Part shown: in pieces, positions 26,149 through 46,225 of the stretch
Layout of the letters: every line of letters starts with the position of its first letter
Position numbering within the stretch: position 1 is the first letter of the stretch
Assembly: GCA_002378745.1 (NCBI GenBank)
Contig: DFRR01000003.1
Coordinates: forward strand, 1 to 50,517
Reading direction: 5' to 3'
DNA from: Patescibacteria group bacterium UBA3458
GTDB taxonomy: Bacteria; Patescibacteriota; Minisyncoccia; Phycocordibacterales; UBA2100
Length of the DNA: 50,517 bases
The notes under the pieces: generated by a model
Database searches by the model: none
What the model was told of the DNA's origin: nothing
What the model saw: only the letters and a program-made list of their open reading frames with translations
Made by a program: the position numbers and the translations under genes

Positions 26149-27840
26149 CAAACGTGAATTATCAGAGTCAATCTGACCAGAATAGCCTTGTTTCAACTGG
26201 GCTATTTTTGGTTCGAGCGTGATTTTCTGAGACCTGCTGAAATCGTAGGTGCTTCTGAGACCCAAAAGCGGAGAAGCGACTGAAATACTAAGTTTTTTGT
26301 CTTTCAGTGTGAGGTTCGAGCCGAGCGACTGCAATATCTCTCGCTTAGTGTCATTATCGCCATTTTTAAACTTGTCACGGGCTGTTTTAGCAGCGTGTAT
26401 GTAGTTATCAGCTATGCCCACCCAATCAACTGCGCGCTCGTGTAAGACGCGAATATTCTTACGTACATCAGATAGTTCAGACTCGACCGCCTCTTTTGAG
26501 TTGTGGAGCTGTTCTTTTGAGATCTCTTCGTTGGCTCGCATCATTACCAAGTTATCAAGCTTTTGAAGAAGCTCGGTTTCTCGTTTTCTGTTTTGCGCCG
26601 TGATGTTTTCTTGGTCGTATATCTCATTACGGTGCAAATACTTGATTGCTTCAAGTGCCCAAAGATAGAAGTCCTTAGGGATTGAAACAGAGGAGATCAC
26701 GCTGTCTATTTGTTTTTCGAGATCTTTCTCTTCAACATATTTCTGTGAACATTTTCCACGCTTCTTAGTGCAACGGTAGTATGTTTTGTCTATGATCGTT
26801 GGATTTTCTATCTCACTTACATCAAGCTTACACCGCGGGCAGCTAGAACTTGTCTTGATGGAGAACTTTCTCTTGCACGTAGTGCATCGAGCTTGGATCT
26901 TCCGTTCAGCTGTCACTGCGCATCCACACTCACCACAGAAAATTGATCCACGGAGAGCAAAGTCAGACTTATTGATCTTGGTAGGTCGACCACGCTTTCC
27001 GAGAAGAGTTTGCATTTTATCAAACTCATCTTCTGTGATCATCGTCTTGTGTTTTCCAGTAAAACTTTCTTTAACACCATCCTCGTTATTCCATTCAAAA
27101 GATCCGTAGTAAAAGGGGTGGGTAAACATATGCCAATACGCATTTAGTGAGTACCCCCGCCCATTTTTGTTTTTGAGACCTATCTTATCACCTTCGCGTT
27201 TGATGTCGGATACAGAGTAGTTTCCAGTAAGCATTTTTCGCCAAAGCGATTTCACGAGATCAAATCTCTCTGGATCAAGAACGATCTCATCCTCTCCAAC
27301 TCGATAATCTTTATTGTGCGTATACCCGATAGGGAGAACCGATGCGGGGTACCAACCTCGTGCAGCTTTTCTGCGCTGGCTTCGTTTTACGTCAACGCTG
27401 AGGTCGTTGCTGTATTGGTTGGACATACCAAGCTCAACCGCCATTAGCAGGACGTTGTCCCACGGGTTGTAGTCGCGGGAATATGTTTGAATTCTTTTGA
27501 TAACACCCTGCTGAAGCAGCCAACTTATTTGCCCACCATCAACAGGATTACGGGACAGACGATTTAATTTCCAACACAAGATGCCAGACGCTTCTTTATT
27601 TTGAATGCGCTCAAGCATTGTGTTGAAACCCTTGCGCATTCCAGGATACTTTGCTGACTGTGACTCAGTAATTGTGTCCACAATCTCCAGTCCTAGGCGC
27701 TCAGCTATCTTATGCATCTCAGCTAATTGATCCTCTATGGATGCCATTTGTTTGTCTTCGACATCGGTAGATTTTCTGACATAGAGGAAATATTTGATGT
27801 CTGATGGAGTTTGTATCTTCATAGTAGTTTGATTATACAA
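26089..27840 (-). CDS. Large serine recombinase (integrase) of the adjacent island
   Basis: 583 aa. The N-terminal resolvase catalytic domain is 'YVRKSTDVEDKQMASIEDQ'. It also has a recombinase domain, the zinc-ribbon cysteines 'CGECGC...CTTCKRKF...CPRCK' and a coiled-coil region. The last 19 codons plus the stop are antisense to tRNA-Gln. Confidence 0.9.
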   Translation of the reverse strand: MYNQTTMKIQTPSDIKYFLYVRKSTDVEDKQMASIEDQLAEMHKIAERLGLEIVDTITESQSAKYPGMRKGFNTMLERIQNKEASGILCWKLNRLSRNPVDGGQISWLLQQGVIKRIQTYSRDYNPWDNVLLMAVELGMSNQYSNDLSVDVKRSQRRKAARGWYPASVLPIGYTHNKDYRVGEDEIVLDPERFDLVKSLWRKMLTGNYSVSDIKREGDKIGLKNKNGRGYSLNAYWHMFTHPFYYGSFEWNNEDGVKESFTGKHKTMITEDEFDKMQTLLGKRGRPTKINKSDFALRGSIFCGECGCAVTAERKIQARCTTCKRKFSIKTSSSCPRCKLDVSEIENPTIIDKTYYRCTKKRGKCSQKYVEEKDLEKQIDSVISSVSIPKDFYLWALEAIKYLHRNEIYDQENITAQNRKRETELLQKLDNLVMMRANEEISKEQLHNSKEAVESELSDVRKNIRVLHERAVDWVGIADNYIHAAKTARDKFKNGDNDTKREILQSLGSNLTLKDKKLSISVASPLLGLRSTYDFSRSQKITLEPKIAQLKQGYSGQIDSDNSRLLPDLDSNQDTRLQRAMSYH

Positions 27841-30852: not shown

Positions 30853-31042
30853 CATACTACAACTGAATAAGAAATGACCTAACCCTTCGGCTTTTGCTGG
30901 AGATATGGTCGAAAATCGTAGACCACAGAAAACCCATCATTAGGGCGTGGTCTACGTTATAGGGGGAAACTCCTATAGGAGCTTCGGCTCTCCTAGTGGT
31001 GGGCTTTTTGTACCCACCCGCTTAGTAGCTTTCTGAATCAAT

Positions 31043-31990
31043 ATGAAAACTAATCGGGGCTTTATTTCAATATTTGCAGCAGTACTTATTGTCCTTGGTG
31101 TTACTGCGGTTGCAGGAGGAGGGTATGTCGCGACCCAATATGCGTTACGGGATAATACGCATCAGCAACCCATTGCTGAAGAAGAGAGAATTGCAACTTC
31201 AAGCACTCACACACAAACGAGTGTGCCCCAGGAAGAACAGAAGGACACAGAAAAACCACCCCTTAATCTCGACGACTACAAAATAGAAAGTGAACAGACA
31301 GAGCCCTCACATCCAGAGGACTTGGCAGACTCTATGCTCGCCGATATTGAGCGCCTCACATATGTCGATACTCTCGAACAAGACATCGTCGATTTCAGGA
31401 GGCTATTAAATGCGATTTCTAAGAACGAAGCACTCTACATAAAGTTTGCACAAGATGCAGGTAATGATAGAGCTGACGCACTTGATAGTTTGACTTCACT
31501 AACGACGAACGCGGAACTCAAACAGCTTATCTCAAGCTCTGCTACAGATTTTCGTGGGCACGCAACAAATGCGGCAGATGAACTTAGTGAACCTTATGAA
31601 CTTGTAGCAAGCGAAGTCAAAAAGTATCTTGCAGCAACAGAAGCAGCGAAACGTGCAATCGAGCAAGGAGCACCTTACAATGACGCAGAAGGGGTTATTG
31701 CTGAGAATAAACAACAATTTGAACGGCTGGTTAGTTTGTTGGAGTCTGCAGATAGTGCGGTGCGCAATGTTGAGAACGCAAAAGCAGATATCTATTCAGA
31801 AACACTATCATCTATACGTGACATACTTGCAGTGCAGAGTGTATCGTTTAGTCTGAGTGCTCAGTTGGCGAATATCGAGCAAGAAGCGCTTGAGAATACC
31901 TTGCCGCAAACTGAAATACAGTGCTGGGCAACTACTGAATACAGTGGTGGGTTGAATGGCTCATCATACACGACGGTCAGATGTGAGTAG
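31043..31990 (+). CDS. Membrane-anchored / secreted coiled-coil protein, function unknown
   Basis: 315 aa with an N-terminal hydrophobic anchor 'GFISIFAAVLIVLGVTAVAGGG', followed by an acidic, Ala/Glu-rich helical region. Confidence 0.5.
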   Translation: MKTNRGFISIFAAVLIVLGVTAVAGGGYVATQYALRDNTHQQPIAEEERIATSSTHTQTSVPQEEQKDTEKPPLNLDDYKIESEQTEPSHPEDLADSMLADIERLTYVDTLEQDIVDFRRLLNAISKNEALYIKFAQDAGNDRADALDSLTSLTTNAELKQLISSSATDFRGHATNAADELSEPYELVASEVKKYLAATEAAKRAIEQGAPYNDAEGVIAENKQQFERLVSLLESADSAVRNVENAKADIYSETLSSIRDILAVQSVSFSLSAQLANIEQEALENTLPQTEIQCWATTEYSGGLNGSSYTTVRCE

Positions 31991-31992
31991 AT

Positions 31993-32292
31993 ATGAAAAT
32001 ACAAATTCCAAAAGAATACGAAGAACACTTCCGAGATGACGTTGTGTATGTGACAAGATGGAAATCGCCGAGCTTACTTTTGATGAACGAAGCAGAGCAC
32101 GATAGTTTCCAGAAAATTCTTGAAGGCTCTCGGGTGGATTGTAAAGATGGGATGCTACGCTTCATTCGGGCTGGAATTCTTGATCTCAAAATTGAGGATG
32201 GGGCTATAGATATCCCCAATGGTGTGGGTAGCTTCCTACAAGGTGAAAACAGGGCATTTCATAGGGGAAAAGCAGGAATTGCGCTCTCCTAG
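31993..32292 (+). CDS. Small hypothetical protein (weak MraZ/AbrB-like two-repeat impression)
   Basis: 99 aa, starting 2 nt after the previous stop. It contains 'KIQIPKEY' and a second 'AIDIPNGV' repeat. The assignment is speculative. Confidence 0.35.
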   Translation: MKIQIPKEYEEHFRDDVVYVTRWKSPSLLLMNEAEHDSFQKILEGSRVDCKDGMLRFIRAGILDLKIEDGAIDIPNGVGSFLQGENRAFHRGKAGIALS

Positions 32293-32316
32293 GGATAGGT
32301 TTGATTTGAATTGGGG

Positions 32317-32372
32317 TTGACATATTCAAACTTAGCGTATAAACTCTGAATATACCTTTTGGTATTCAGAAT
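32317..32372 (+). promoter_or_regulatory. Candidate promoter plus an inverted repeat upstream of the Fic / R-M array
   Basis: TTGACA (32317-32322) and TATAAA (32338-32343) are separated by a short 15-nt spacer. An imperfect inverted repeat 'tctgaata(ta)cc tttt ggtattcaga' (32345-32370) abuts the ATG at 32373. Confidence 0.35.
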
Positions 32373-33515
32373 ATGGCTAAGAAAAAGCAGTGGAAATCTG
32401 GCACATATCGCCAGCAATATGAATACAAGAGCTTTCTCCCCGAGAAGGTGAATGTTCCATTTGAGTGGGAGGATCCTCGCATTGACCTTCTCTTGAGTGA
32501 TGCAATGCGCTACCTGGGCGAGCTTAATGCTTATTCCACACTCGTGCCTGATGTCGACTTCTTCATCCAGATGCACATCTCAAAAGAAGCAACTGTCTCA
32601 AGTCGCATTGAGGGTACGGAGACTAACCTTGATGAGGCGCTTTTGTCTGAAGATGAAATTGACCCAGAAGATCGTGATGACTGGGGTGAGGTGCAGAACT
32701 ATATCAAGGCAATCAACTTTTCAGTTGAGAAACTTTCCGAACTGCCATTGTCTACACGCCTGGTGAAGGACACACACAAAGTGCTCCTCTCTGGGGTGCG
32801 TGGATACAGCAAGTTGCCAGGAGAGATTCGTACAAGCCAAAACTGGATTGGAGGGTCTTCACTTACGGATGCGGCTTTCATTCCACCGCACCACACTGAT
32901 GTTGCTGACCTTCTCGATGATCTGCAGAAGTTTTGGCACAACAAGCAGCTTCAAGTACCCGAATTGGTACGGATTGCTTTGACCCACTATCAGTTTGAGA
33001 CAATCCACCCGTTCCTTGATGGAAACGGGCGTATTGGACGTTTGCTCATCACGTTGCAACTTATCGACCTCGGCATCCTTCAGAAGCCAACGCTCTACAT
33101 CTCTGACTTCTTTGAGCGCAATCGATCGAAATACTACGACTCTCTTTCACGAGTACGCGAGAGTAATGACATTGAGCACTGGGTTCGCTTTTTCTTGCAG
33201 GGCGTCGTTGAGACTGCAAAGAAAGGGAAAGAAACATTCGAGAAGATCATTGCCCTTCGTGCAAAGTATGAGCAGATCATTGAGGAGCGAATGGGAGTGA
33301 AGCGGCAGAAGCTCGCAAAACAGCTTCTACTCAAACTCTTCTCCAAACCCGTCGTAACGGTGAATGACATCGCTGAGATGCTCAACGTGACCTTCCAGAC
33401 GGCAAACACACTCGCCAAAGAGTTTGAAGACGCGGGGCTCTTTGAGGAGAAAACAGGCTTTTCTAAGAACCGCATCTTTTATTTGCGAGAGTACCTAAAA
33501 CTCTTTAACCACTAA
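32373..33515 (+). CDS. Fic/DOC-family protein (AMPylase type) with an N-terminal inhibitory helix and a C-terminal wHTH
   Basis: The Fic motif is '[12 protein letters not shown]' and the inhibitory motif (S/T)xxxE(G/N) appears as 'SSRIEG'. At 380 aa it fits the Fic_N + Fic + HTH architecture. Confidence 0.9.
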
Positions 33516-33519
33516 ACGT

Positions 33520-35505
33520 ATGAACGACTTCAGCAAAAAAGCAGCCCTTATATGGAACATCGCGGACATTCTCCGTGGTGGCTGGAAGCAGCACGAATAT
33601 CAGGATGTAATCCTGCCGCTTTTAGTGTTGAAGCGTTTGGACGCTATTCTCTCTGATTCGAAAGAGAAGGTGCTTGATAAGTACAACGAATACAAAGGGA
33701 AAGTAGATGTCGATCCGATCTTGAAGAAAACGTCAGGTGTTGGCTTCTACAATGTATCACCGTACGACTTCAAAAAGCTCACTGAAGATCACACGCATAT
33801 CGTTAAGAACTTCCACAACTACCTCAACGGCTACAGCGATAACATTCGTGACATCTTCGACAAATTCAACTTCGATAAGCAGCTCGAGCGTCTTGAGGGT
33901 GGCAATATGCTCTACCTCATCATCCAAGAGTTCAACAAGGTAGACCTTCACCCAGACAGTGTTGATAACCATCAAATGGGACTTATCTTCGAGGAATTGC
34001 TCCGAAAATTCTCAGAAATGTCCAATGAGACTGCGGGAGAGCACTACACGCCCCGTGATGTGATTCGGCTTATGGTCGAGGTTCTCTTCACTCCTGATGA
34101 GAAGCTACTCAAGAAGCCGCACGTGATTAAAACAGTGTACGATCCTGCGTGTGGTACAGGCGGGATGCTCACTATCGCTAAGGATTACATCCTCAACGAG
34201 ATCAACAAAGACGCATCAGTGTATCTGCACGGACAAGAACTCAACTCGGTCACATACGCTATTGCGAAGTCCGATATGCTTATCAAGGGTGAGGATCCAG
34301 AGTTGATTCGTGGTGGAGAAAAAAATCACACTAAAGCAAGCACGCTCTCAAATGACCAGTTCTTTGGGGAGAGCTTTGATTACGGGCTTTCAAATCCACC
34401 ATATGGCGTTGATTGGAAAAAAGATAAGGATGCAGTTGAGAAAGAAGCGACCCGTGGATTTGCGGGGCGGTTTGGTGCAGGCACGCCTCGTATCTCAGAC
34501 GGACAGCTTCTTTTCCTCCAACACTTGGTTTCTAAAATGCGACCCACAAAAGACGGTGGATCTCGTGTTGGTATTGTCCACAACGGCTCACCGCTCTTTA
34601 CAGGTGATGCTGGAAGCGGAGAAAGTGAAATTCGTCGTTGGCTTCTTGAGAAGGATTATCTCGAGGCAATCATCGCACTCCCAGATCAGCTTTTCTACAA
34701 CACAGGCATCAACACATACCTGTGGTTTGTGAGTAACCGCAAATCACCTGAACGCCAGGGCAAAGTGCAGCTTATTGATGGACGTGAGTTCTATGGGAAG
34801 CTACGTAAAACGCTTGGCGCAAAGCGTAAAGAAGTAGATGAGGAAGGACGTAAGCAGATTATGAAGCTCTACACCGACTTCAAGGAAAATGAGCATTCTA
34901 AAATATTCGACACTACGGACTTTGCATATCGCCAAGTTACGATTGAGCGTCCCTTGCGGCTCAACTTCCAGGTATCACCAGAGCGCAGTGAGCTTGTAAA
35001 AGAAGAGAAAGTGTTCCAACGCCAAAAGCCAACAATCCAAGAAGAAATTCTTGGGGCACTATCTAATTTTCCAGACAAAAAGCTGTTTACTGACCGAGAG
35101 AAGTTCCTAAAGGTTTTCAATTCGCATATGAAGGAGCTAAAACTTGGCGCCCCATTGAAGAAAGCAATCCTCAACGGTTTGTCTGAGCAGGATGAAAATG
35201 CAGAGATTTGTCGTGACAGCAAGGGTAATCCAGAACCAGACGGCAACTTGCGAGACCAAGAAAACGTACCGTGGGGCGTAAGTGTCGAAGAGTACTTCAA
35301 AAAAGAGGTACAGCCATACGTTGAGGATGCGTGGCTCAATGAAGAGGTGCGAGATCATAAGGACAACCAGGTTGGGAAGGTTGGCTACGAGATTCCGTTC
35401 ACACGATACTTCTACACGTATGAACCACCACGTGATCTTGAGGAAATCGAAAAGGATATTGAAGGTGTGGAGAATGAACTCCTCACGCTTTTGAAGCAAC
35501 TATAA
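33520..35505 (+). CDS. hsdM: Type I restriction-modification methyltransferase subunit HsdM
   Basis: The N-terminal HsdM_N region is 'IWNIADILRG', the AdoMet motif is 'DPACGTGGML' and the catalytic motif is 'NPPYG'. Confidence 0.95.
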   Translation: MNDFSKKAALIWNIADILRGGWKQHEYQDVILPLLVLKRLDAILSDSKEKVLDKYNEYKGKVDVDPILKKTSGVGFYNVSPYDFKKLTEDHTHIVKNFHNYLNGYSDNIRDIFDKFNFDKQLERLEGGNMLYLIIQEFNKVDLHPDSVDNHQMGLIFEELLRKFSEMSNETAGEHYTPRDVIRLMVEVLFTPDEKLLKKPHVIKTVYDPACGTGGMLTIAKDYILNEINKDASVYLHGQELNSVTYAIAKSDMLIKGEDPELIRGGEKNHTKASTLSNDQFFGESFDYGLSNPPYGVDWKKDKDAVEKEATRGFAGRFGAGTPRISDGQLLFLQHLVSKMRPTKDGGSRVGIVHNGSPLFTGDAGSGESEIRRWLLEKDYLEAIIALPDQLFYNTGINTYLWFVSNRKSPERQGKVQLIDGREFYGKLRKTLGAKRKEVDEEGRKQIMKLYTDFKENEHSKIFDTTDFAYRQVTIERPLRLNFQVSPERSELVKEEKVFQRQKPTIQEEILGALSNFPDKKLFTDREKFLKVFNSHMKELKLGAPLKKAILNGLSEQDENAEICRDSKGNPEPDGNLRDQENVPWGVSVEEYFKKEVQPYVEDAWLNEEVRDHKDNQVGKVGYEIPFTRYFYTYEPPRDLEEIEKDIEGVENELLTLLKQL

Positions 35506-35507
35506 CT

Positions 35508-36800
35508 ATGTCGAAATTAACGCTTACAAAAAAATACGGTGTGTATCCAAATTACAAGGACTCTGAAATTGATTGGATTGGACTCACTCCTACTGACTGG
35601 CAAGCACTGCCTCTTCGAGCGGCTCTCGTGGAGAGAAAAGAAAAAAATAGATCTCTAGTTTCTGACAATATCCTTTCCGTAATGAAGGACGTTGGAGTAA
35701 TCCGTTATGCTGACAAAGGAGATATTGGAAATAAAAGTTCTACTCGTCCTGAGAACTACAAGATAGTTCACCCTGGCGACATTGTTATCAATAGTATGAA
35801 CCTTGTGATCGGTTCAGTAGGTCAATCGCGGGAATTTGGTGTAACGAGTTCCGTGTATATCATCTACGCGCCTAGGACTGAGGACATAAACGCAACATAC
35901 TACTCATATATTTTCCGAAACAGAAGTTTCCAAAAACATATGGCTCGCTTCGGTAAGGGAATAATGGAACTTCGAGAATCAATAAAACCAATTGATCTAA
36001 AAAATCAGATCTTGCCTATCCCACCCAAAGATACGCAGGATAAAATTGTAGAATTTTTGGACGAAAAAACGGCGACAATCGACCGCATTATTGAGAAAAA
36101 GCAGCGGCAGATTGAGTTGCTCAAAGAAAAGCGAGCGGCAGTAATCAATCACACTGTTACAAAAGGTCTCGATCCAAAAGCGAAACTCGTCGACTCTGGT
36201 GTGGAGTGGATGGGAGAGATTCCTTCAGATTGGGATAAAGAAAAACTGAAGTTTGTTGCGCCACTTCGTAACACTAAGGCTAATAAAGAAAAGGTTGATC
36301 TGCCGTATGTAGGTCTTGAACACATTGAAAGTGCAACTGGTCGGCTATTGAAGAGTGAAGAAAAGGCGGAGCCTGAGAGCGTTGTGAATCTGTTTGAGAA
36401 AGGCGATGTCCTCTTTTCAAAGCTACGCCCAAATTTAGCTAAGGTATTACTCCCTGAATTTGATGGTATGTCTACAGGAGAGCTGCTTGCACTAACCCCA
36501 AATACAACGAAGATAATTCCATCATATCTTTTCTACAAACTGATCAGTAGAGATTTTATTAACAAGGTTTGTGACTCTGTTTATGGAGCAAAAATGCCGC
36601 GAGCAAACTGGAATTTGATTGGCAGTCTATACATTACATACCCATCAATTTCTGAGCAGAAAAAAATAGTAGACCATATAAACAAAAAGGTTGAAAAAAT
36701 TGATGCCGCATTGGAGTTAATTCAAGATTCCATAAAAACATTGCAGGAATTCAAATCATCGCTGATTTCACACGCTGTAACTGGAAAAATAAAAGTATGA
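35508..36800 (+). CDS. hsdS: Type I R-M specificity subunit HsdS (two target-recognition domains)
   Basis: 430 aa. The central and C-terminal conserved helices are 'IIEKKQRQIELLKEKRAAVINHTVTKG' and 'IKTLQEFKSSLISHAVTGKI'. It lies between hsdM and hsdR. Confidence 0.9.
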   Translation: MSKLTLTKKYGVYPNYKDSEIDWIGLTPTDWQALPLRAALVERKEKNRSLVSDNILSVMKDVGVIRYADKGDIGNKSSTRPENYKIVHPGDIVINSMNLVIGSVGQSREFGVTSSVYIIYAPRTEDINATYYSYIFRNRSFQKHMARFGKGIMELRESIKPIDLKNQILPIPPKDTQDKIVEFLDEKTATIDRIIEKKQRQIELLKEKRAAVINHTVTKGLDPKAKLVDSGVEWMGEIPSDWDKEKLKFVAPLRNTKANKEKVDLPYVGLEHIESATGRLLKSEEKAEPESVVNLFEKGDVLFSKLRPNLAKVLLPEFDGMSTGELLALTPNTTKIIPSYLFYKLISRDFINKVCDSVYGAKMPRANWNLIGSLYITYPSISEQKKIVDHINKKVEKIDAALELIQDSIKTLQEFKSSLISHAVTGKIKV

Positions 36801-39748
36801 TTAAAACAAACACAAAAGAAATAGGTTTTGAAGAGCTGATCGAAAAACAGCTCTCAAAACTCCACAAGTATCGGGTTCGTACTGCGAGCGACTTCGATAA
36901 GGAGCTTGCGATGGACAAAGCACTTGTAGTTGAGTTCGTGCAGACCTCTCAGCCAGAAGCGTGGGAGAAGCTCGTCGAGCAATACGGAGCGGATGTGGAG
37001 TCAGAATTTTTGAAGCGTCTTGATGCGGAAATTGCGTCCCGCGGGCTTTTGGATGTATTTCGCGATGGCATTAGTGATCGTGGTGTCAAAGTCAGCCTGG
37101 CTTTTTGGAAGCCACAGAGTCACCTTAATGAAGAGGTATGGCAGGACTATGAACACAACATTCTCAGTGTGATGCGGCAGGTGAAGTACAGTACCAAGAA
37201 TGAAAACTCTATCGACCTGGCGATTTTCCTCAATGGTCTTCCGATATTTACTGTTGAGCTCAAAAATCAGCTCACTAAACAAACTGCTCGTGATGCAATC
37301 CGCCAGTATAAAACCGACCGCGATCCTCGAGAAAAGCTCCTTTCCTTCAAACGCTGCTTAACACACTTCGCGGTAGACACTGAGCAGGTGTATATGACAA
37401 CGCAGCTTAAGGGGCTTGCGACGCGCTTCTTGCCATTCAATAAGGGGTACAAGAACTCGTCAGGCAATCCTCCTGTTGAGGGTAAATACAAGACGCACTA
37501 CCTTTGGGAAGATGTGTGGGCTAAGGACAGTGTCCTTGACTTAGTTGGCAATTTTATTCACCTGCAAGTTCAGGAGAAGGAAGATAAGAATGGGAAGAAA
37601 ACCAAAGAGGAAGTACTTCTTTTCCCACGCTACCACCAACTTGATGCCGTACGCCGTATTATTGGTGATACCCAAGAACAAGGATCAGGAAAGAATTACC
37701 TCATTCAGCACAGTGCGGGTTCAGGAAAGAGTAATACGATTGCGTGGTCTGCACACCGACTTTCAGAGCTTCATAATGAGAATGATGAAAAAGTATTCGA
37801 CTCCATCATTGTCATTACCGACCGCCGCATTCTTGATAAACAGCTCTCAGACACGGTTGAGAGCTTCTCACAGGTACGTGGTGTCGTTAAGCACGTGGAG
37901 AGCTCTGCAGAGCTTCGTGAGGCGCTTGAGAACGGTGTAAAAGTGATTACGAGTACTCTCCAGAAGTTCCCTGTAATTGTGGATGCGATTGATCAAGTTC
38001 AGGGAAACAAGTTTGCGGTATTGATTGATGAGGCGCACTCGTCACAAACGGGTGAAGCTGCCGCTGACCTCCGCCAGGTACTTACCTTGGAGGATGCCGA
38101 AAAGCAAGCGCAGAAGGAAACAAAAGCATTCAAGACCTCAGAGGATCTTATTATCGAGCGAATGAAGGCACGTAAGGTGAAGACACCAAACGTGAGCTTT
38201 ATTGCCTTTACTGCAACACCTAAACAAAAAACACTTGAGTTGTTTGGAGTAGAGGATCCAATTTCGGGAAAGTTCATTCCATTTTCGCTTTACTCAATGC
38301 GACAAGCGATCGAGGAAGGATTTATTCTTGATGTACTCAAGAACTACACTACATATCAAACGTACTTCGAGCTTCTGAAGACCATTGAGGATGATCCAGA
38401 GTATGACAAGGCAAAAGCACAACGTCTCCTTATCGGATACGTGGAGAAACACGAGCACGCTATTGAGCGTAAAACGCAGATTATGGTGGAGCACTTTGAA
38501 GAGAAAATAGCTCCACTTATCTACGGGCAAGCAAAGGCAATTATTGTCACCAAGTCACGCCTTCACGCGGTGAAGTACAAGCAAGCGTTTGATAAGTACC
38601 TCCAGGAGAAAGGATACCCACACAAGGCACTTGTGGCGTTTTCGGGAACGGTTCGCGATGGAAAACTCGACTACACAGAAACACAGATGAACGATGGTAT
38701 CCCCGAGAAGCAAACCGCAGAGGAGTTTAAGAAGGACGACTACAAATTCCTCATTGTTGCAGAGAAGTTTCAGACTGGTTTTGACCAGCCACTTCTCTCG
38801 GTGATGTATGTCGACAAGAAACTTAGTGGTGTAAATGCGGTACAGACACTCTCGCGGCTAAATCGCACCACAGCGGGAAAGAGTGATGTGTTTGTGCTTG
38901 ATTTTGTGAACGAGGCTGATGACATCAAAGAAGCATTCCAGCCGTACTACACAACTACCGTGCTCTCACAGGCAACTGATCCGAACATTTTGCACGACCT
39001 TGAGCGGGATGTGTTCCAATTCAAGCTTTTCAGTCTCAATGAGATAGAAGGGTTTGTAGAAGAGTATATGAACGGTGCATCGCCCGACACACTCAACGCG
39101 ATGCTTGATGAGGTAGTGGAGCGTTCTATGTCGCTTCTGGACGAGGAGCGAGACGATTTCAAGTCGAAAGCGCAGGACTATATCCGCAAGTATGCCTTCA
39201 TTTCTCAAATCGTCACCTTCGAAGATCCAAAACTCGAACGCTTGTATATTTTCTTGAAGTTCCTTGTGCGCAAACTACCAACTCGGGTAGAGCCGCTACC
39301 ATACGAGGTGTTGGAGTCCGTAGATATGGACTCGTACAAGGTTCAGAAGATCGCTGACACAAAGATTCGCTTGGATAATGATACTGAGGAGCTTGAACCA
39401 ATGGGCTCGGGAGATAGTGGCACAAAGAAACTTGATGAGCTTGATCCGCTCTCCAAAATAGTCAAAGAAATCAACGATCGCTTCGGTACGGTATTTACTG
39501 ATAAAGACAAGGTGATTTTGAACTCACTGAGCGCAAAGTTGTTGGAGGACAAGAATCTTGAAGGATCAATTAAGAACAACACCCGTAATGCGGCAAAGAT
39601 CAAGTTCAATAAGATGTTCAATGATGAGCTCGTTGAGATGCTCAACAGTCACTTCGACCTTTACAAGAAGTTGGACTCAAGTCCAGAGCTTAAGGAATTT
39701 GTGAACGATCGCATCTTCGAGTTCGTGCTCAAAAAAACTAAGAAATAA
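36797..39748 (+). CDS. hsdR: Type I restriction enzyme endonuclease/translocase subunit HsdR
   Basis: 983 aa. It has an N-terminal PD-(D/E)xK region ('DLAIFLNGLPIFTVELK'), helicase motif I 'SAGSGKSNT', motif II 'DEAHSSQ' and 'QTGFDQP'. It overlaps the hsdS stop by 4 nt. Confidence 0.95.
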   Translation: MIKTNTKEIGFEELIEKQLSKLHKYRVRTASDFDKELAMDKALVVEFVQTSQPEAWEKLVEQYGADVESEFLKRLDAEIASRGLLDVFRDGISDRGVKVSLAFWKPQSHLNEEVWQDYEHNILSVMRQVKYSTKNENSIDLAIFLNGLPIFTVELKNQLTKQTARDAIRQYKTDRDPREKLLSFKRCLTHFAVDTEQVYMTTQLKGLATRFLPFNKGYKNSSGNPPVEGKYKTHYLWEDVWAKDSVLDLVGNFIHLQVQEKEDKNGKKTKEEVLLFPRYHQLDAVRRIIGDTQEQGSGKNYLIQHSAGSGKSNTIAWSAHRLSELHNENDEKVFDSIIVITDRRILDKQLSDTVESFSQVRGVVKHVESSAELREALENGVKVITSTLQKFPVIVDAIDQVQGNKFAVLIDEAHSSQTGEAAADLRQVLTLEDAEKQAQKETKAFKTSEDLIIERMKARKVKTPNVSFIAFTATPKQKTLELFGVEDPISGKFIPFSLYSMRQAIEEGFILDVLKNYTTYQTYFELLKTIEDDPEYDKAKAQRLLIGYVEKHEHAIERKTQIMVEHFEEKIAPLIYGQAKAIIVTKSRLHAVKYKQAFDKYLQEKGYPHKALVAFSGTVRDGKLDYTETQMNDGIPEKQTAEEFKKDDYKFLIVAEKFQTGFDQPLLSVMYVDKKLSGVNAVQTLSRLNRTTAGKSDVFVLDFVNEADDIKEAFQPYYTTTVLSQATDPNILHDLERDVFQFKLFSLNEIEGFVEEYMNGASPDTLNAMLDEVVERSMSLLDEERDDFKSKAQDYIRKYAFISQIVTFEDPKLERLYIFLKFLVRKLPTRVEPLPYEVLESVDMDSYKVQKIADTKIRLDNDTEELEPMGSGDSGTKKLDELDPLSKIVKEINDRFGTVFTDKDKVILNSLSAKLLEDKNLEGSIKNNTRNAAKIKFNKMFNDELVEMLNSHFDLYKKLDSSPELKEFVNDRIFEFVLKKTKK

Positions 39749-39752
39749 ACCT

Positions 39753-41111
39753 ATGCAAGCTGCCTTTAAAAAATTTCTCACGAACATAAAACTCACCGTT
39801 CCTCAAAAAGAGGACGCAAAGACAAAAACGAGAAGTGTTTGTAAGGCACTCCACGCTAAGTACTATCCGAACACCGAGTATAACGGCAGCACCAAATTCT
39901 TGGTTGGTTCTTATGGTAAACACACAAATATTCGTCCACCGAAGGATATAGACGTGATTTTCAAGTTACCTCCAGAGTTATATGAGCAATACAGTTCGGG
40001 TAATAAACAGTCGCAGCTATTACAGGATGTCCGAGCAGTTTTGAAAGATACCTTCACTACCACTGAGAAAATCAGCGCTTTCGGTAAGGTGATAGTAATT
40101 AACTTCAGCGAGGGTACTCATTCGGTTGAATTACTACCTGGTTGGGAGTTAGAGTCTGGGTCATTTCGCATTCCTAACACGGAGAACGGGGGATCTTGGG
40201 ATGTGTGGAATCCGCTTGCAGAAGATAAAAATATAGATGTCTCAAGTGTGGCGACAAAAAAGACCCGATCTCTTATACGGATGATGAAAGCGTGGGTGAA
40301 TAATTGCGGCGTACCACTCAAATCATTCGTGTTAGAGATATTGGTAGTTGATTATTTGCACGAGCAATACAATAACAACGTGACGGTTGAGTATCCAGAA
40401 CTTGTTCAGGGATTCTTTGACTTTCTTAAGAATAAAAAGCACGGTTCTATATATCTACCTGCTTCTGGTACGCATATGAATTTAGGGGAGGATTGGTACT
40501 CACGAGCTGAAAGTGCGTACAATCGCGCCACAAAAGCTATTGAATACGAACAGGCGGATAAATTGCGGGATAGCTCTCTTGAGTGGAAGAAAATTTTTGG
40601 TGATGACTTCCCATTGGTAGACGCTAAAGAAGCCGCCGTAGCTACTGTTGGTTCAAGTTTTGAACTGAAAATAGAAGAGTTGACCCAAAGGTATCCTTCG
40701 CCAGCTGAGGAAGATATCACTGAACAATACGGGATTCCTGTTCGTCTCGTCTCTGGGTATCAAATTGAGATTGACGCTGAGGTAACACAGAAAGGTTTTA
40801 GGAAAGGAATGCTATCGGACTTCATAGCGAAGCGATTTCCTCTGTTGAAAGGTAAAAAGCTTCTTTTCTCTGTAAAGCATTGCAACATACCGCCTCAGTA
40901 TGAAGTGATGTGGAAGGTCAGAAACTTTGGAGAGGAAGCACAGCGGGCGGAAGGTCTACGGGGAGAGATAAATCGAGACAGTGGATTCAAGCAACGTGAA
41001 GAAAGTACGCTTTATCACGGCGAACACTATGTTGAATGCTACGCCATCAAAGATGGTGTTTGTGTTGCGGTTGGGAAAATATTAGTACCTATTGGAACAA
41101 GTTATGAATAA
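39753..41111 (+). CDS. CD-NTase / SMODS-type nucleotidyltransferase with an AGS-C-like C-terminal domain
   Basis: 452 aa. The pol-beta NTase core is 'FLVGSYGKHTNIRPPKDIDVIF' (G52-S53, D65-x-D67). The third acidic position lies in 'HSVELLPG' (E126). The C-terminal beta-rich domain has 'YEVMWKVRNFGEEAQRAEGLRGEI'. The gene starts 4 nt after the hsdR stop. Confidence 0.7.
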   Translation: MQAAFKKFLTNIKLTVPQKEDAKTKTRSVCKALHAKYYPNTEYNGSTKFLVGSYGKHTNIRPPKDIDVIFKLPPELYEQYSSGNKQSQLLQDVRAVLKDTFTTTEKISAFGKVIVINFSEGTHSVELLPGWELESGSFRIPNTENGGSWDVWNPLAEDKNIDVSSVATKKTRSLIRMMKAWVNNCGVPLKSFVLEILVVDYLHEQYNNNVTVEYPELVQGFFDFLKNKKHGSIYLPASGTHMNLGEDWYSRAESAYNRATKAIEYEQADKLRDSSLEWKKIFGDDFPLVDAKEAAVATVGSSFELKIEELTQRYPSPAEEDITEQYGIPVRLVSGYQIEIDAEVTQKGFRKGMLSDFIAKRFPLLKGKKLLFSVKHCNIPPQYEVMWKVRNFGEEAQRAEGLRGEINRDSGFKQREESTLYHGEHYVECYAIKDGVCVAVGKILVPIGTSYE

Positions 41112-41568
41112 AACTGAAATATTAAAAAACGAATGCAAGACAATAGAGGACAATGCTCGTCATACAGCAGAAGCTCATTATCTGATTGCAGCAAAGAGTA
41201 AACGTACTGCAATCATCCTCGAAGTTATCCCTGCTCTTATCGCCGCTTCCTCAGGTCTGTTGGTTGTGGGTGAGATTATCCCAATTTGGTGGGGATGGTT
41301 GACTGTGGTTTCGGCATCCGTCACAGCAACCAGTAGTATCATAAGCCCCCATAAATCCTATTATGAAAATTTGAATGCAGGAAAAGCTTTTACGGTGGTA
41401 AAGAATCGAGCAAAGTCTCTGAATGAAACTTTTGCAAACCTCAGTGCCGAAGAGGAATTGTGCAAGGAAGTGAAAGCGCTTTCAGAGTACTACAACCAAC
41501 TTGTGCTTTTAACACCACCAACGCAGGAATGGGCGTATAAAAAAGCAGAAAGGAAATTATCAAAATGA
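41104..41568 (+). CDS. SLATT-like 2-TM effector protein
   Basis: About 154 aa. After the N-terminal helix 'ARHTAEAHYLIAAKSKR' come two adjacent TM helices (AIILEVIPALIAASSGLLVVG and IPIWWGWLTVVSASVTATSSII) and then a C-terminal helical region. The start ATG at 41104 overlaps the NTase stop (ATGAATAA). Confidence 0.6.
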   Translation: MNKTEILKNECKTIEDNARHTAEAHYLIAAKSKRTAIILEVIPALIAASSGLLVVGEIIPIWWGWLTVVSASVTATSSIISPHKSYYENLNAGKAFTVVKNRAKSLNETFANLSAEEELCKEVKALSEYYNQLVLLTPPTQEWAYKKAERKLSK

Positions 41569-42635
41569 AATATTTATACGATCAAAGTCATTACGAAGAT
41601 CTTTACGATCGAGCCACTGTGTCTCGTTGCCGTTGGATAGAAGACTTTCATACACGGTACGATCCAAAACAAAAACCAAAGACTAAAGAAGAGAAAGCTA
41701 TGTTAGATGCAGCTCAAAAGATGGCGCTTCATTATGACCTTCTTTTTACTACTGGCGAGCGTTATTTAGAGCGAGACACTACGATACGAGAGTGGGTTGA
41801 GCGAGATACTAACAGGCAAGAAATGTATGACAACGCCGAAGCGCCTGGAGGTGTACTGTGCCCGACGTGTGGAACAAGAATGGATGCAACCTTCAAGATG
41901 CTCTACGACCTTGATAAGGAAAAAGACGAGAGAGTTCTCTTTATGTATGACTGTCCAGAAGGTTGTATGCCGCGACGCTCATTCTTTCAAGATGGCGAGG
42001 AATGGGTTGCGCAACATAAATCTTGTAAGGAATGTGGAGGCGAGATAAAGGTAGAAGATAAAAGTACTAAAAAGAAATCAATCATCACGTCTACGTGCAC
42101 TGAATGCGGCTTGGTTGATGTGAGTGAACACGAATTTGAGACAGAGAAAGACGACGAGAAATTTGAGGAAGATCGAAAAAGATTTTGTTTGTCGCAAGAA
42201 AAAGGTCAAGAGTACATCGAAACTAAGCAGTGGTTTAAAGATGTAGAAGTTTTGATGGATGAATTAAAAGAGCGAGAAGAAAAGAAAGACGAATATGATG
42301 CGGTAAAGAAGCTATCAAAACTCACCGTATCTCAACTTGAAAAGAAACTCGCAGAAGCAATGTCAAAGGATGGATACTCCCGCCTAACATTTGATAAGCC
42401 CGAGATCGGAACTGACGTTCGGATCGGCTTTACCGTAAACGATGACAGCAGTGAAGTGGACGAATATACAAGCCGAAACAAACTAAAGAAACTTATTAGT
42501 AAGACGCTCGAGGATACAAATTGGCGACTTATGACGGAAGGCATATCGTACCGTCTCGGTATTCTCACAGGACGATTGCGAGGCTACGAAAGCGAAGCAG
42601 ATTTACTGAAGCTCGTGAGTTCGGGGCGTAAATAG
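41565..42635 (+). CDS. Double zinc-ribbon / coiled-coil protein, function unknown
   Basis: 356 aa with two CxxC...CxxxC/CxxC pairs ('CPTCG..CPEGC' and 'CKECGG..CTECG'), a Glu/Lys-rich coiled coil and a C-terminal globular domain. It overlaps the upstream stop by 4 nt (ATGA). Confidence 0.6.
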   Translation: MKYLYDQSHYEDLYDRATVSRCRWIEDFHTRYDPKQKPKTKEEKAMLDAAQKMALHYDLLFTTGERYLERDTTIREWVERDTNRQEMYDNAEAPGGVLCPTCGTRMDATFKMLYDLDKEKDERVLFMYDCPEGCMPRRSFFQDGEEWVAQHKSCKECGGEIKVEDKSTKKKSIITSTCTECGLVDVSEHEFETEKDDEKFEEDRKRFCLSQEKGQEYIETKQWFKDVEVLMDELKEREEKKDEYDAVKKLSKLTVSQLEKKLAEAMSKDGYSRLTFDKPEIGTDVRIGFTVNDDSSEVDEYTSRNKLKKLISKTLEDTNWRLMTEGISYRLGILTGRLRGYESEADLLKLVSSGRK

Positions 42636-42650
42636 GTATAATTACATTAT

Positions 42651-43577
42651 ATGGCGGATCTATCACGATTAAAAAAAGTAGACCTCAGAGAAGCTTGGAA
42701 GCACGAAGCTATTGATTTTACGAACTGGCTGGCTCAAGAGGAGAATCTCACGTTACTTGGCGATGAGATTGGTTTTGATATTGAATTAACGCAAACAGAA
42801 GCTGCTGTCGGGAGTTTCAATGTTGATATTCTTGCCGAGGAAGCAAACACAGGTAAAAAGATAATTATCGAAAATCAGCTCGAGATGACTGATCACGATC
42901 ATCTTGGAAAGATAATTACTTATGCCTCTGGATATGATGCCAGGGTGATTGTGTGGGTTGTGCGTGACGCAAGAGAAGAGCATAGGAATGCGGTTGATTG
43001 GTTGAACGAACACACTGATGAAGATATGGAGTTTTATCTGGTGCGTATTGAAGTATGGCAGATTGAAAGTTCTCCGCTTGCTCCAAAGTTTGAAATACTC
43101 TCACGTCCGAATGATTGGGCAAAGGCGGTTAAGGAGTCAACAACCCGAACAGCACTTACAGATACTAAGCTTAAGCAGCTTGAATTTTGGACTCAGTTCA
43201 AAGAATACGCGAAAGAGAACAATACCCCTCTGCGTTTTCAAAAGGCATATCCGCAGCATTGGACTAACATAAGTATTGGGCACAGCAATCTCCACGTTGC
43301 TCTTACTATCAACTCAAGGGATAAGCAGTTTGGTGTGGAGGTTTATATACCAGATAACAAGGAGCTATTTGCGACGTTGTTTGAGCATAAGGCGCAGATA
43401 GAGTCTGAGGCAGGAAGTGAACTTGAATGGATGGAATTACCTGAAAAGAAAGCGAGTCGAATCAAATTATCTCTCGCAGGGGATTTTGAGGACGAGAGCA
43501 ATTGGGAGCAGTACTTTGAATGGCTCTTGAGACAGGCGGAAAAGTTCAAAGAGGTCTTCCCGAAATATTGGGGCTAA
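42651..43577 (+). CDS. PD-(D/E)xK-type nuclease-fold protein with a DUF4268-like C-terminal domain
   Basis: 308 aa. 'FNVDILAEE...KKIIIENQLEMTDHDHLGKIITYA' matches a D...E-x-Q/K restriction-endonuclease-like core. The C-terminal 'FWTQFKEYA...' half resembles DUF4268. Confidence 0.6.
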   Translation: MADLSRLKKVDLREAWKHEAIDFTNWLAQEENLTLLGDEIGFDIELTQTEAAVGSFNVDILAEEANTGKKIIIENQLEMTDHDHLGKIITYASGYDARVIVWVVRDAREEHRNAVDWLNEHTDEDMEFYLVRIEVWQIESSPLAPKFEILSRPNDWAKAVKESTTRTALTDTKLKQLEFWTQFKEYAKENNTPLRFQKAYPQHWTNISIGHSNLHVALTINSRDKQFGVEVYIPDNKELFATLFEHKAQIESEAGSELEWMELPEKKASRIKLSLAGDFEDESNWEQYFEWLLRQAEKFKEVFPKYWG

Positions 43578-43607
43578 AAAGACAGAATTTTAGTATAATT
43601 ATGGGTA

Positions 43608-44207
43608 ATGGATACTAATTACCCACTACAAAATAACGAAGAAAAAGTTGTTCAACGATCAGATACCGCACTAACGGAAGAAATTGTTCGTGCAATAGTT
43701 CAACGTATTCGGAACGGCAAACCTATAACAAAAAGAGGAAGAAAAACTCTTCTTCTTGATTATGCACCAGGGCAGCAACCCGTGAGTGTCTCAACGTACA
43801 CTTCTTGGCTGAGGAGAGGAACCACACCGCTTAACAGTAAGGAGAATCGCTCTTTGAGGGATATTGTAGACGAAGCCCGAATTGAAGGAAGACAGCGACT
43901 ACACGAGGAAATGTTGCGCAAGGCAGAAGAAGTACTTGGTTCTCATTTGGAACTTAAAACTGGAGAGAAAATAGTGCACAAACGCATCAACAAAGACGGG
44001 AAAGTAGAGTTGTATAACAGTACGCGACTTGTACCAAAGCTGGTTGATACTAAGCAGCGAGCTGCTGAGTTTGTAGCTAAGAAGCTCGATCCACAAACCT
44101 ACGGAGATTCAGTAAAAACTGATAACCGACACTTGATCTTTTCTTTATCTGAACTTCGCCGATATCAAGAGGAAAAGGACAGATTGAATCAGACACAATC
44201 ACAATAA
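43608..44207 (+). CDS. Hypothetical basic/helical protein at the island end (terminase-small-subunit/HTH-like impression; possible directionality factor)
   Basis: 199 aa. 'RAAEFVAKKLDPQTYGD' resembles small-terminase/HTH proteins. It is the last gene of the co-directional array. Confidence 0.4.
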   Translation: MDTNYPLQNNEEKVVQRSDTALTEEIVRAIVQRIRNGKPITKRGRKTLLLDYAPGQQPVSVSTYTSWLRRGTTPLNSKENRSLRDIVDEARIEGRQRLHEEMLRKAEEVLGSHLELKTGEKIVHKRINKDGKVELYNSTRLVPKLVDTKQRAAEFVAKKLDPQTYGDSVKTDNRHLIFSLSELRRYQEEKDRLNQTQSQ

Positions 44208-44230
44208 TGAACATAATGAACATAATGAAC
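44204..44230. repeat. Perfect 3 x 9-bp tandem repeat (ATAATGAAC)
   Basis: 'ataatgaac ataatgaac ataatgaac' overlaps the stop codon of the 43608-44207 gene. Confidence 0.9.
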
Positions 44231-44243
44231 TTTATGTACGTCT

Positions 44244-44381
44244 ATGAAAGGTAATAAGGAGATTAAAATAACTTATTGTGAGTTGGAGGATGTCGATCAA
44301 AAGCAGGTTGATGCCGCGTTCGACATTCTTTTTAACGAGGTAATTTGTCTAGATAACTTGGGAAAAAGTGCATCTGAGTAG
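44244..44381 (+). CDS. Very small ORF (45 aa), possibly a gene remnant
   Basis: 'MKGNKEIKITYCELEDVDQKQVDAAFDILFNEVICLDNLGKSASE'. It falls below the ORF-track cutoff and lies in the 250-bp gap at the presumed island boundary. Confidence 0.2.
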   Translation: MKGNKEIKITYCELEDVDQKQVDAAFDILFNEVICLDNLGKSASE

Positions 44382-44460
44382 CCATAATTGAGGTTCTAAC
44401 TTTCTTAAGTTCTGTCAGCTAGCTTGAAGTAATAGTTCCTTGGTGTCATAGTAAAGATAT

Positions 44461-44679
44461 ATGGAAATTTTCATTCAATACCTTATAACGTTTGGGTGGG
44501 CCCTTACCGCGGCTATTTCTATGGCTGTTGCCATGAGCATCGGTCTTACAATCTTTACGTGGATTTCTCCGCTGAATGAGTGGGAAGAGGTGCGCAATGG
44601 AAACATGGGTATGGCCATCATTCTTGCTGCGGCAGTAATCGCAATGGCTATCGTGGTTGCGTTTGCTATCACTGGCTAG
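44461..44679 (+). CDS. DUF350-like small membrane protein
   Basis: 72 aa with two or three TM helices. '[27 protein letters not shown]' fits the DUF350 pattern. Confidence 0.6.
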
Positions 44680-44681
44680 TC

Positions 44682-45014
44682 ATGAAGCGCGTTTACACAG
44701 GACTTTTGGTACTTAGTATCATTCTCTTTCCAGGAGTTTCTTTGGCGCATTCCGGTCGTACTGACGCGAATGGGTGCCACACAAATCACAAGACAGGGGA
44801 TTACCACTGCCACAGTAAGAAGACAAAAACCACTGCTCGTACGACTGCACGAGTTGAAAGCCGCTCAGAGTATAATGATAAGAATTGCGCAGATTTTACT
44901 ACACAGCAAGAGGCGCAGGAGTTTTATATACGAAATGGCGGTCCGATAATTGACCCACATGACCTTGATAGAGACAGCGACGGTATCGCGTGTGAAACGC
45001 TACCATCACGCTAA
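44682..45014 (+). CDS. Secreted protein with an N-terminal YHYH-type Cys/His motif and a C-terminal Excalibur calcium-binding domain
   Basis: The signal peptide is '[17 protein letters not shown]'. It carries '[14 protein letters not shown]' and the Excalibur motif '[14 protein letters not shown]...[15 protein letters not shown]'. ATG at 44682. Confidence 0.75.
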
Positions 45015-45016
45015 GG

Positions 45017-45373
45017 TTGTATATGATGAAACATAAAATCTATACAATGGCTGTTGCGAAGGTGTACCCGATGTACATTGCGAAGGCAGAGAAGAAAGGG
45101 CGCACAAAGCAAGAAGTGGATACGGTTATAAAATGGCTTACGGGGTATACGCAACGGCAACTGGATTCTGTAGTGAAAAAGGAGGTGGACTTTGAAACGT
45201 TCTTTAAACAAGCGCCAAAGCTGAATCCGGCACGAAAGTTAATTACCGGCAAAGTGTGCGGTGTTCAGGTAGAAGACATTACAGAGAAAACCATGCGCGA
45301 AATTCGCTATCTCGATAAGCTCGTTGATGAGCTGGCAAAAGGGAAGGCGATGGAGAAAATATTGCGAAAGTAG
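45017..45373 (+). CDS. DUF2200-like protein
   Basis: 118 aa. '[37 protein letters not shown]' is recalled as the DUF2200 pattern. Confidence 0.6.
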
Positions 45374-45442
45374 CATGTCTATTTAAGTATGCACACATAC
45401 ACTTTTGTATGTAGAGTGCAGATTTTTGTGTATACTCATTGC

Positions 45443-46225
45443 ATGATTAAAGGTATCACCAAAGTACTGTTAGCCGCAGGTATCCTTGGGGCAGGTGCGT
45501 ATGGGCTTGCCGCTGTGGGCGCGATGCCACAAGAAGCATATTCTCGTGGACTTGGCTTCGTCGTTGCGCTACAGGAAGGTTCTGGACCTTTTGATGGTAC
45601 GTGGGTGGCTCATGCAGATGCAGATATTGCAGAGACGGACGAAGCGTTTTGCGGAACAGCAACTGGACAATTTGTCGTGCAGGGAAGTCGCATGTATGGA
45701 AGCGTAGAAAACGAGTTTGGGGATACATTTATGGTGACAGCGAATGTTGACGGGGGTGGAGATATGAGCGGAGGAATGGCATTAGGAATTGAAAACGTCG
45801 CCCACTTTACCGGCACGCTCCTTGATAGCAATGGTGTGGGCACCTGGAGCGATGAACTCGGATGTTATGGTGACGTTACCTTTCAACGAATAACTGCGGT
45901 TGGTTCCCACGATCCGCGGTATATACGAGAAATAGCAGGTAGAGCATTCGTCGTTCGCGGCATACGGACTATTCCAGCTGCACCCGGTCTCGTATTGCAC
46001 CCCGGAGATGTAGTTGCGGTAGAGGAGTCCTCGCAGGTAATACTTGCTATCGGTTCGGATGTGTTACGAATCTCTGAAAAGACAAAGTTTGAAATTCCTG
46101 CGGAGGAGACAGATGTGCAAGAGTCTACCGTTACCGACCGAATATGGACCTCTTTGAAGTATTTAATACAGGGTCCGTCGTTTGAAATTAAAACACCAAC
46201 GGCTGTTGCGGGTGTGCGGGGTTGA
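45443..46225 (+). CDS. Membrane-anchored protein ending in a FecR-like domain that appears C-terminally truncated
   Basis: Starts 'MIKGITKVLLAAGILGAGAYGLAA' (ATG 45443). The C-terminus 'VVAVEESSQVILAIGSDVLRISEKTKFEI...TPTAVAGVRG*' stops at the point where FecR domains normally continue (GVRGTxF...). Confidence 0.45.
   Translation: MIKGITKVLLAAGILGAGAYGLAAVGAMPQEAYSRGLGFVVALQEGSGPFDGTWVAHADADIAETDEAFCGTATGQFVVQGSRMYGSVENEFGDTFMVTANVDGGGDMSGGMALGIENVAHFTGTLLDSNGVGTWSDELGCYGDVTFQRITAVGSHDPRYIREIAGRAFVVRGIRTIPAAPGLVLHPGDVVAVEESSQVILAIGSDVLRISEKTKFEIPAEETDVQESTVTDRIWTSLKYLIQGPSFEIKTPTAVAGVRG

Follow-up and report, generated by a model that had tools for sequence, protein, structure and literature searches.

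Approximately 40% of the cGAS/DncV-like nucleotidyltransferases (CD-NTases) of type I cyclic-oligonucleotide-based antiphage signalling systems (CBASS) carry an AGS-C domain, and operons that combine AGS-C with SLATT effectors, including EcCdnF04/F05-SLATT6, defend E. coli; moreover, the presence of AGS-C correlates with the phage families that are restricted, and escape mutations fall in virion assembly proteins (bioRxiv 10.1101/2023.05.21.541620). A nucleotidyltransferase/AGS-C and SLATT (PF18186) pair on the lactococcal plasmid pUCCL631 has been catalogued as type I CBASS (PMC11381338), and membrane proteins, SLATT4 and SLATT6 among them, are listed as the effector class that is most abundant in CBASS (PMC12480259). 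A survey of the defensomes of bacteria of the candidate phyla radiation (CPR) also exists; of the CPR classes, Paceibacteria have the greatest density of defence systems (PMC12259885). Here we analyse two overlapping genes at positions 39753-41568 (+ strand) of a 50,517-nucleotide stretch of contig DFRR01000003.1 (assembly GCA_002378745.1, Patescibacteria group bacterium UBA3458), which is referred to as the window. The first gene encodes a 452-amino-acid (aa) CD-NTase (the cyclase) and the second a 154-aa SLATT_4-type protein with two predicted transmembrane segments (the effector). For this pair we computed the domain identities, catalytic residues, fold, conservation of the pairing, limits of the cassette and absence of accessory Cap genes.

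It is very probable that the two genes constitute a type I CBASS, made up of a cyclase and an effector only and carried as a self-contained 1.8-kb cassette. As in EcCdnF04/F05-SLATT6, pUCCL631 and pairs found on Klebsiella and Aliivibrio plasmids, the cyclase gene comes first and the effector gene directly after it. The locus also shares with these systems a SMODS core, an Ig-like AGS-C tail, a SLATT effector of the two-transmembrane type, a setting in a defence island or mobile element, and the absence of Cap2, Cap3 and HORMA genes. It differs from them in its CPR/Paceibacteria-like host and in its effector, which we place in a short (154-168 aa) SLATT_4 sub-branch that is missing a C-terminal tail; the Klebsiella and Aliivibrio cyclases are only 30-33% identical to the window cyclase. 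An earlier reading of the same DNA, made from its letters alone (the sequence-only reading), identified the genes correctly but overrated the pair as novel, given how many type I CBASS carry AGS-C and that AGS-C/SLATT operons are known to defend E. coli. The pair belongs to a kind of system that is already known, is widespread and has been validated by experiment. Its CD-NTase-AGS-C and SLATT architecture is common, annotated by RefSeq and validated in other hosts, standard tools for defence annotation would label it as type I CBASS, and as a defence system it adds little.

Results

The cyclase gene occupies positions 39753-41111 (+). Its product matches Pfam SMODS (PF18144) over residues 2-161 (4.4e-25; 89.2 bits, cut-off 26.5) and the PADLOC CBASS Cyclase model PDLC00796 over its full length (residues 2-448; 1.2e-118), in agreement with the SMODS/CD-NTase identity that had been read from the sequence. 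The sequence features are not due to chance: across the two genes the profile E-values span 1e-16 to 1e-118. The nucleotidyltransferase core comprises residues 1-290 (39753-40622, +) and aligns with residues 6-299 of Pseudomonas aeruginosa CdnD (PaCdnD; 6p8u/6p82/6p8j), the closest sequence match in the PDB (phmmer, E = 4.5e-14). The motifs picked out by the sequence-only reading are present at the residues it gave, namely V51-G52-S53-Y54 in 'VGSYGKHT' (codons of G52-S53, 39906-39911), K64-D65-I66-D67 in 'KDIDVIF' (codons of D65-x-D67, 39945-39953) and E126 in 'HSVELLPG' (codon 40128-40130), all on the + strand. In the phmmer alignment they fall on the catalytic positions of PaCdnD: D65 and D67 correspond to the two residues that are changed in the deposited PaCdnD D62N/D64N structure, and E126 aligns with the third catalytic Asp, in 'SVDAVPAF'.

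A comparison of 35 homologues (47-85% identity) shows no variation at G52, D65 and D67 and at least 90% conservation at S53 and E126. The third acidic residue is a Glu, where PaCdnD has Asp, and had been put forward as a novel feature of this gene. We looked at this column in 82 homologues, comprising 80 genome loci down to ~30% identity and two plasmid copies (Klebsiella and Aliivibrio), and covering Patescibacteria, Bacteroidota, Firmicutes, Proteobacteria and archaeal metagenome-assembled genomes (MAGs). Glu is present in all 82, both with and without AGS-C, and on this ground we reject Glu126 as an inactivating or novel substitution. Because every homologue carries it, the third catalytic Glu is the norm of a large CD-NTase clade, neither specific to this gene nor a sign of inactivation.

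An AlphaFold2 model of the cyclase built on the 35 homologues (predicted local distance difference test, pLDDT, 91.2; predicted template modelling score, pTM, 0.65) predicts a cGAS/DncV-like CD-NTase fold for the 452-aa protein. A Foldseek search of the PDB with this model bore out the expected likeness to solved CD-NTases: the top 50 matches are all CD-NTases (best E = 3e-17; template modelling (TM) scores on the target of 0.72-0.77) and include PaCdnD, BfCdnB, DwCdnB, CdnD02, CdnC, DncV, CdnE and CdnG. A helix at residues 291-313, with a short low-confidence stretch at residues 297-299, joins the core to the AGS-C domain, and the pTM of 0.65 fits two domains connected in this manner. The best structural matches, PaCdnD (6P82/6P8J/6P8U) and BfCdnB (7LJO), have the GS, DxD and acidic triad in register with the window cyclase but share only 17-22% sequence identity with it, too little to place it in one of the CD-NTase clades A-H, and their solved chains of ~290-300 residues cover the nucleotidyltransferase core but not the AGS-C tail. 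Moreover, PaCdnD was crystallised with a HORMA protein (6p8u, 'CdnD:HORMA2:Peptide 1 complex'), whereas no HORMA domain was detected among the neighbours of the window cyclase.

The distinct C-terminal domain that the sequence-only reading had recognised by 'MWKVRNFGEEAQRAEGLRGEI' (residues 386-406) is confirmed by Pfam AGS_C (PF18134), whose match at residues 319-447 (40707-41093, +) includes this stretch, scores 3.9e-39 (134 bits, cut-off 26.7) and covers 125 of the 129 profile positions (4-128). When modelled alone, the tail is predicted to form an Ig-like beta-sandwich (pLDDT 94.1, pTM 0.87) and is a putative sensor or regulatory domain. Its best fold match in the PDB by Foldseek is 9ARD, entitled 'EcPycC cyclase immunoglobulin-like AGS-C domain' (E = 9e-4, TM 0.54-0.56), followed by PKD, FN3 and Ig domains. 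The EcPycC domain belongs to the same Pfam family and has the same Ig-like beta-sandwich, but its fusion partner is a pyrimidine cyclase (Pycsar) and not a CD-NTase, and the two tails are 16% identical (TM ~0.55).

An AGS-C sequence was also encountered in a phage. Positions 39743-40135 of Enterococcus phage Efs 1-1-1 (OR846606.1) match the AGS-C tail only (query residues 321-448, 36.8% identity, E = 5e-17), with no match of this stretch to the nucleotidyltransferase core; it could belong to a Pycsar- or CBASS-type fusion with a different enzyme, or be a stand-alone AGS-C.

The close relatives L025, L030, L031, L036 and L037 lack AGS-C. Their cyclases are ~300 aa long, with a core 41-50% identical to that of the window and the same Glu, and are accompanied by a separate open reading frame (ORF) of ~190-210 aa before the effector. 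In L031 and L036 this ORF matches PADLOC E2 models (6e-35 and 8e-20), and in L031 the SLATT_4 effector comes next. The window, in contrast, has the AGS-C fusion and no E2 gene. Since the relatives without AGS-C have a separate E2-like ORF, the AGS-C fusion and the stand-alone E2 seem to replace each other as accessories in this one clade of cyclases. The stand-alone-E2 layout is presumably the one called 'type II short'.

In a library of representatives at 50% identity, the cyclase has 1,952 related clusters at E<=1e-3 and 167 at E<=1e-30, and many of these match it over its whole length. The closest taxon-labelled relatives are nearly all MAGs of Patescibacteria/Paceibacteria/Parcubacteria (CPR); the labelled relatives of the zinc-ribbon gene downstream of the effector (zn356, see below) have the same affiliation, in support of the CPR-like host that had been supposed. 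The phage collection contained no full-length homologue of the cyclase, only three partial matches.

The effector ORF ends at 41568 (+) and encodes 154 aa from an ATG at 41104, or 158 aa from an upstream TTG at 41092. The protein matches NCBIfam SLATT_4 (NF033632; 62.9 bits, cut-off 55), the PADLOC CBASS '2TM Effector' model PDLC00712 (1e-16) and the PADLOC model of reverse transcriptase (RT)-associated SLATT (1.1e-19). It contains an uninterrupted hydrophobic block of ~46 residues (residues 35-81; 41206-41346, +), with a G55-E56...P60 turn in the middle of the block and polar, helix-prone flanks. This hydropathy is consistent with a two-helix membrane hairpin between polar helical regions, as the sequence-only reading had described; its count of exactly two transmembrane helices agrees with the profile but is not proven by it.

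We aligned the window effector with the ORF located directly downstream of the cyclase in 27 relatives, and 26 of these 28 proteins match Pfam SLATT_4; of the 34 close homologues of the window effector, two carry a precomputed PF18186 match. Two SLATT_4 subtypes are found in the relatives. The long form, of ~182-200 aa, ends in a C-terminal EELTFSDxEIDxFLP tail and occurs in L003, L005 and most others, while the short form, found in the window, L001, L002, L004 and L006, has no such tail and a hydrophobic region 7 residues shorter. The short-form family comprises 34 clusters, and an alignment of 31 sequences has a mean column identity of 72% and 38 invariant columns. The short and long forms are collinear across 139 columns in hhalign (89.5% probability, E = 2e-6), and we file the effector as a probable divergent short sub-branch of SLATT_4.

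In L001-L034, the ORF that comes after the cyclase encodes sometimes the short and sometimes the long SLATT_4 subtype, even where the cyclases are closely related, which indicates effector exchange.

A direct read of the junction, agttATGAATAAaact, shows that the effector ATG begins at 41104 and that the TAA of the cyclase occupies 41109-41111. The resulting 8-nt overlap of effector start and cyclase stop (ATGAATAA, 41104-41111, +), already noticed in the sequence-only reading, implies translational coupling of the two genes. The pairing is conserved in relatives: nearly all loci from L001 to L034 have, after the cyclase, an ORF of 150-210 aa with hydrophobic, transmembrane-like segments, and in most close relatives the two genes overlap or lie ~30 nt or less apart. 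For at least 12 of the 34 short-effector clusters, the longest contig is identical in size to one bearing a close cyclase homologue, so the short effector and the close cyclase travel together. A tblastn search of plasmids with the cyclase returned 255 records, 89 of which cover at least 80% of the protein, and on the Klebsiella and Aliivibrio plasmids RefSeq annotates a 'nucleotidyltransferase' followed by a 'SLATT domain-containing protein'. No Cap2 (E1/E2), Cap3 (JAB), HORMA/TRIP13 or other CBASS accessory domain was detected among the neighbours, which were scanned with Pfam, PADLOC and NCBIfam (the three downstream genes) or with Pfam and PADLOC (hsdS and hsdR); the minimal composition proposed earlier thus holds.

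The cyclase ATG lies 4 nt after the stop codon of hsdR (39746-39748), the last gene of a type I restriction-modification (R-M) operon. At the other end, the effector stop overlaps the start of zn356 in an ATGA (41565-41568). zn356 (41565-42635) encodes a 356-aa Zn-ribbon protein and is followed by genes for a DUF4268 protein (42651-43577) and a 199-aa protein (43608-44207), all on the + strand. In L089, a related and syntenic metagenomic contig, HsdR, the DUF4268 protein and the 199-aa homologue are 88%, 89% and 73% identical to those of the window, and the slot that corresponds to 39753-41568 is filled by a 777-aa AAA_16/STAND ATPase (L089 3664-5997). A blastn comparison of L089 with the window gave high-scoring segment pairs at 36784-39749 and 41722-44418, and the homology gap between them (39749-41722), which marks the limits of the variable cassette, holds the CBASS pair. 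The STAND ATPase of L089 between the same flanks makes the pair a separate cassette in a slot of variable content; the direct junction of the pair with the R-M operon, which had been counted as a novelty, reflects island packing and no functional fusion. The two loci thus present a clean natural exchange of cassettes, CBASS versus STAND ATPase, between hsdR and a conserved Zn-ribbon gene.

A scan of 31000-45500 for promoters and terminators gave counts at shuffle expectation, with no convincing promoter before the cyclase and no terminator between the genes. The sole nearby candidate terminator on the + strand (41041-41059) falls within the coding part of the cyclase gene and was rejected as probably due to chance. 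The minus-strand ORFs within the cyclase and effector genes (e.g., 40406-40720, 104 aa) are regarded as chance ORFs in well-supported coding sequence.

Discussion

For the way in which this type I CBASS may act, we rely on its family: from it come the defence role, the synthesis of a signal, the killing through the membrane and the part of AGS-C in sensing. Infection, perhaps sensed or modulated via the Ig-like AGS-C tail as a sensing or autoregulatory module, would activate the cyclase, which would use G52-S53, D65, D67 and E126 to produce a cyclic di- or oligonucleotide from nucleoside triphosphates. The co-translated 154-aa SLATT_4 protein, a predicted membrane hairpin with cytoplasmic helical flanks, would bind this nucleotide signal, oligomerise and permeabilise the cytoplasmic membrane. 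The cell would then be killed or arrested before phage progeny are released, that is, by abortive infection.

Several points weigh against this reading. The cyclase matches the NCBIfam equivalog models CBASS_cyclase_a and CBASS_cyclase_b (NF041116 and NF041117) under their cut-off only (117.1 and 57.9 bits versus 200); it is a CD-NTase that falls outside these two narrow models. The SLATT identity named by the sequence-only reading is upheld by the NCBIfam SLATT_4 profile but not by Pfam SLATT_4 (PF18186), where the effector scores 13.7 bits against a gathering threshold of 27. The effector also lacks the EELTFSDxEIDxFLP tail common to most orthologues, and on account of this missing tail and the sub-threshold Pfam score its signal recognition could differ. 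It contains no recognisable nucleotide-binding domain; direct binding of the signal is assumed, as it is for all SLATT effectors. In addition, there is no recognisable promoter in the 4-nt gap between hsdR and the cyclase, so expression of the cyclase and effector may depend on the R-M operon.

One rival explanation is that the pair has decayed or changed in its catalysis, with the Glu as the mark of an inactive or re-purposed enzyme and with a truncated SLATT protein that is non-functional. Such a view could appeal to the usual Asp at the third acidic position of solved CD-NTases, for example PaCdnD, and to an effector that is shorter than most orthologues and under the Pfam threshold. However, Glu keeps the carboxylate chemistry and is shared by all 82 homologues, including the plasmid-borne copies of cultured bacteria; the cyclase and effector ORFs are both intact, and the conservation of the short effector subtype across its 31 aligned sequences indicates purifying selection. 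Decay is thus extremely improbable in our judgment. We give just as little credence to a second-messenger module with a role outside defence, such as housekeeping membrane regulation in an episymbiont. The pair has a type I R-M operon with a Fic gene on one side and PDC-S11, a defence candidate of PADLOC, on the other; L089 has a STAND ATPase in its place; its distribution is patchy across phyla and extends to plasmids; and homologous operon types defend E. coli. All of this speaks against a role outside defence, even though the literature that we found does not demonstrate a biochemical mechanism for SLATT proteins.

Other explanations concern zn356, whose family comprises more than 350 clusters, with labelled members almost all from CPR, and which has no significant match in Pfam, NCBIfam or PHROGs. 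In the sampled contexts, a variable defence-type gene usually precedes it on the same strand, at a distance of 0-50 nt. The preceding gene is a CBASS pair in the window and L016, a KAP NTPase in L083 and L095, the STAND ATPase in L089, an unknown 813-aa protein in L093 and a gene cut by the contig end in L094; after zn356 come DUF4268, GmrSD or housekeeping genes. zn356 was also found at L004, L031, L085 and L087. The window and L089 copies are 61% identical, evenly along their length, versus 88-89% for the flanking HsdR and DUF4268 proteins.

The system might accordingly be larger than the pair, with zn356, and perhaps also the DUF4268/PDC-S11 gene, acting as an accessory or regulatory component of a new CBASS subtype. 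The ATGA overlap couples the effector gene to zn356, homologues of zn356 occur near cyclase relatives (directly after the SLATT gene in L016, and also in L004 and L031), and its lower identity to L089 than that of HsdR and DUF4268 may mean that it co-varies with the cassette. Yet zn356 is found within 6 kb at only 3 of the 80 cyclase loci, which argues that it is not a CBASS component; in seven other contexts, the gene upstream of it is a KAP NTPase, an AAA_16 STAND ATPase, an unknown or a non-CBASS gene; the Klebsiella and Aliivibrio plasmid pairs do without it, and it matches no PADLOC CBASS accessory model. A larger system is therefore distinctly unlikely, and on the strength of the sampled contexts we reject zn356 as a CBASS accessory gene. 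It is also unlikely, if less so, that zn356 is a shared downstream partner (regulator, adaptor or second effector) of varied infection sensors, including CBASS in the window and L016, KAP NTPases and the STAND ATPase, in which case the window CBASS would feed, as one of its inputs, a modular defence hub specific to Paceibacteria. In favour of this idea are the position of zn356 downstream of variable defence genes, its faster divergence than its flanks and the absence of a known domain. zn356 might anchor the hotspot or act as a shared partner, and this hotspot gene is the only loose thread that is worth a further look.

The value of the two-gene type I CBASS is modest and comparative: it is a record of CBASS from a Paceibacteria-like genome, its effector belongs to a distinct short sub-branch of SLATT_4, and its third catalytic Glu is fixed across a large CD-NTase clade. 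The family-wide questions, namely the trigger of AGS-C, the reading of the signal by SLATT and the identity of the product, are not made more tractable by this locus.

The mobile island in which the sequence-only reading had placed the pair is weakly supported. A tRNA-Gln gene (26078-26149, +) abuts a minus-strand gene for a large serine recombinase (Resolvase, Recombinase and Zn_ribbon_recom domains; region 26078-27840), and the GC content falls from ~0.48 to 0.41-0.45 over 26-31 kb and 35-45 kb; both fit an integrated element. On the other side, a blastn-short comparison of the tRNA-Gln region (26040-26200) with the window gave nothing longer than 11 nt, and thus no att-like repeat. The region may be an integrated island.

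Upstream of the pair and on the same strand, the R-M operon runs hsdM, hsdS, hsdR, and directly before hsdM lies a gene for a Fic/DOC-family protein with a helix-turn-helix (32373-33515, +), which may be an R-M-linked toxin or regulator. On the downstream side, the DUF4268 protein has matches to PDC-S11 (9e-128), which is a single-gene defence candidate of PADLOC, and to phrog_27742 (4e-70), and its gene adjoins zn356 in L089 and L090 as well. The 199-aa protein that follows it weakly matches a phage terminase small subunit (phrog_1482, 5.5e-5; Pfam Sf6_terminase, 0.035) and could be a DNA-binding protein left over from a phage or satellite.

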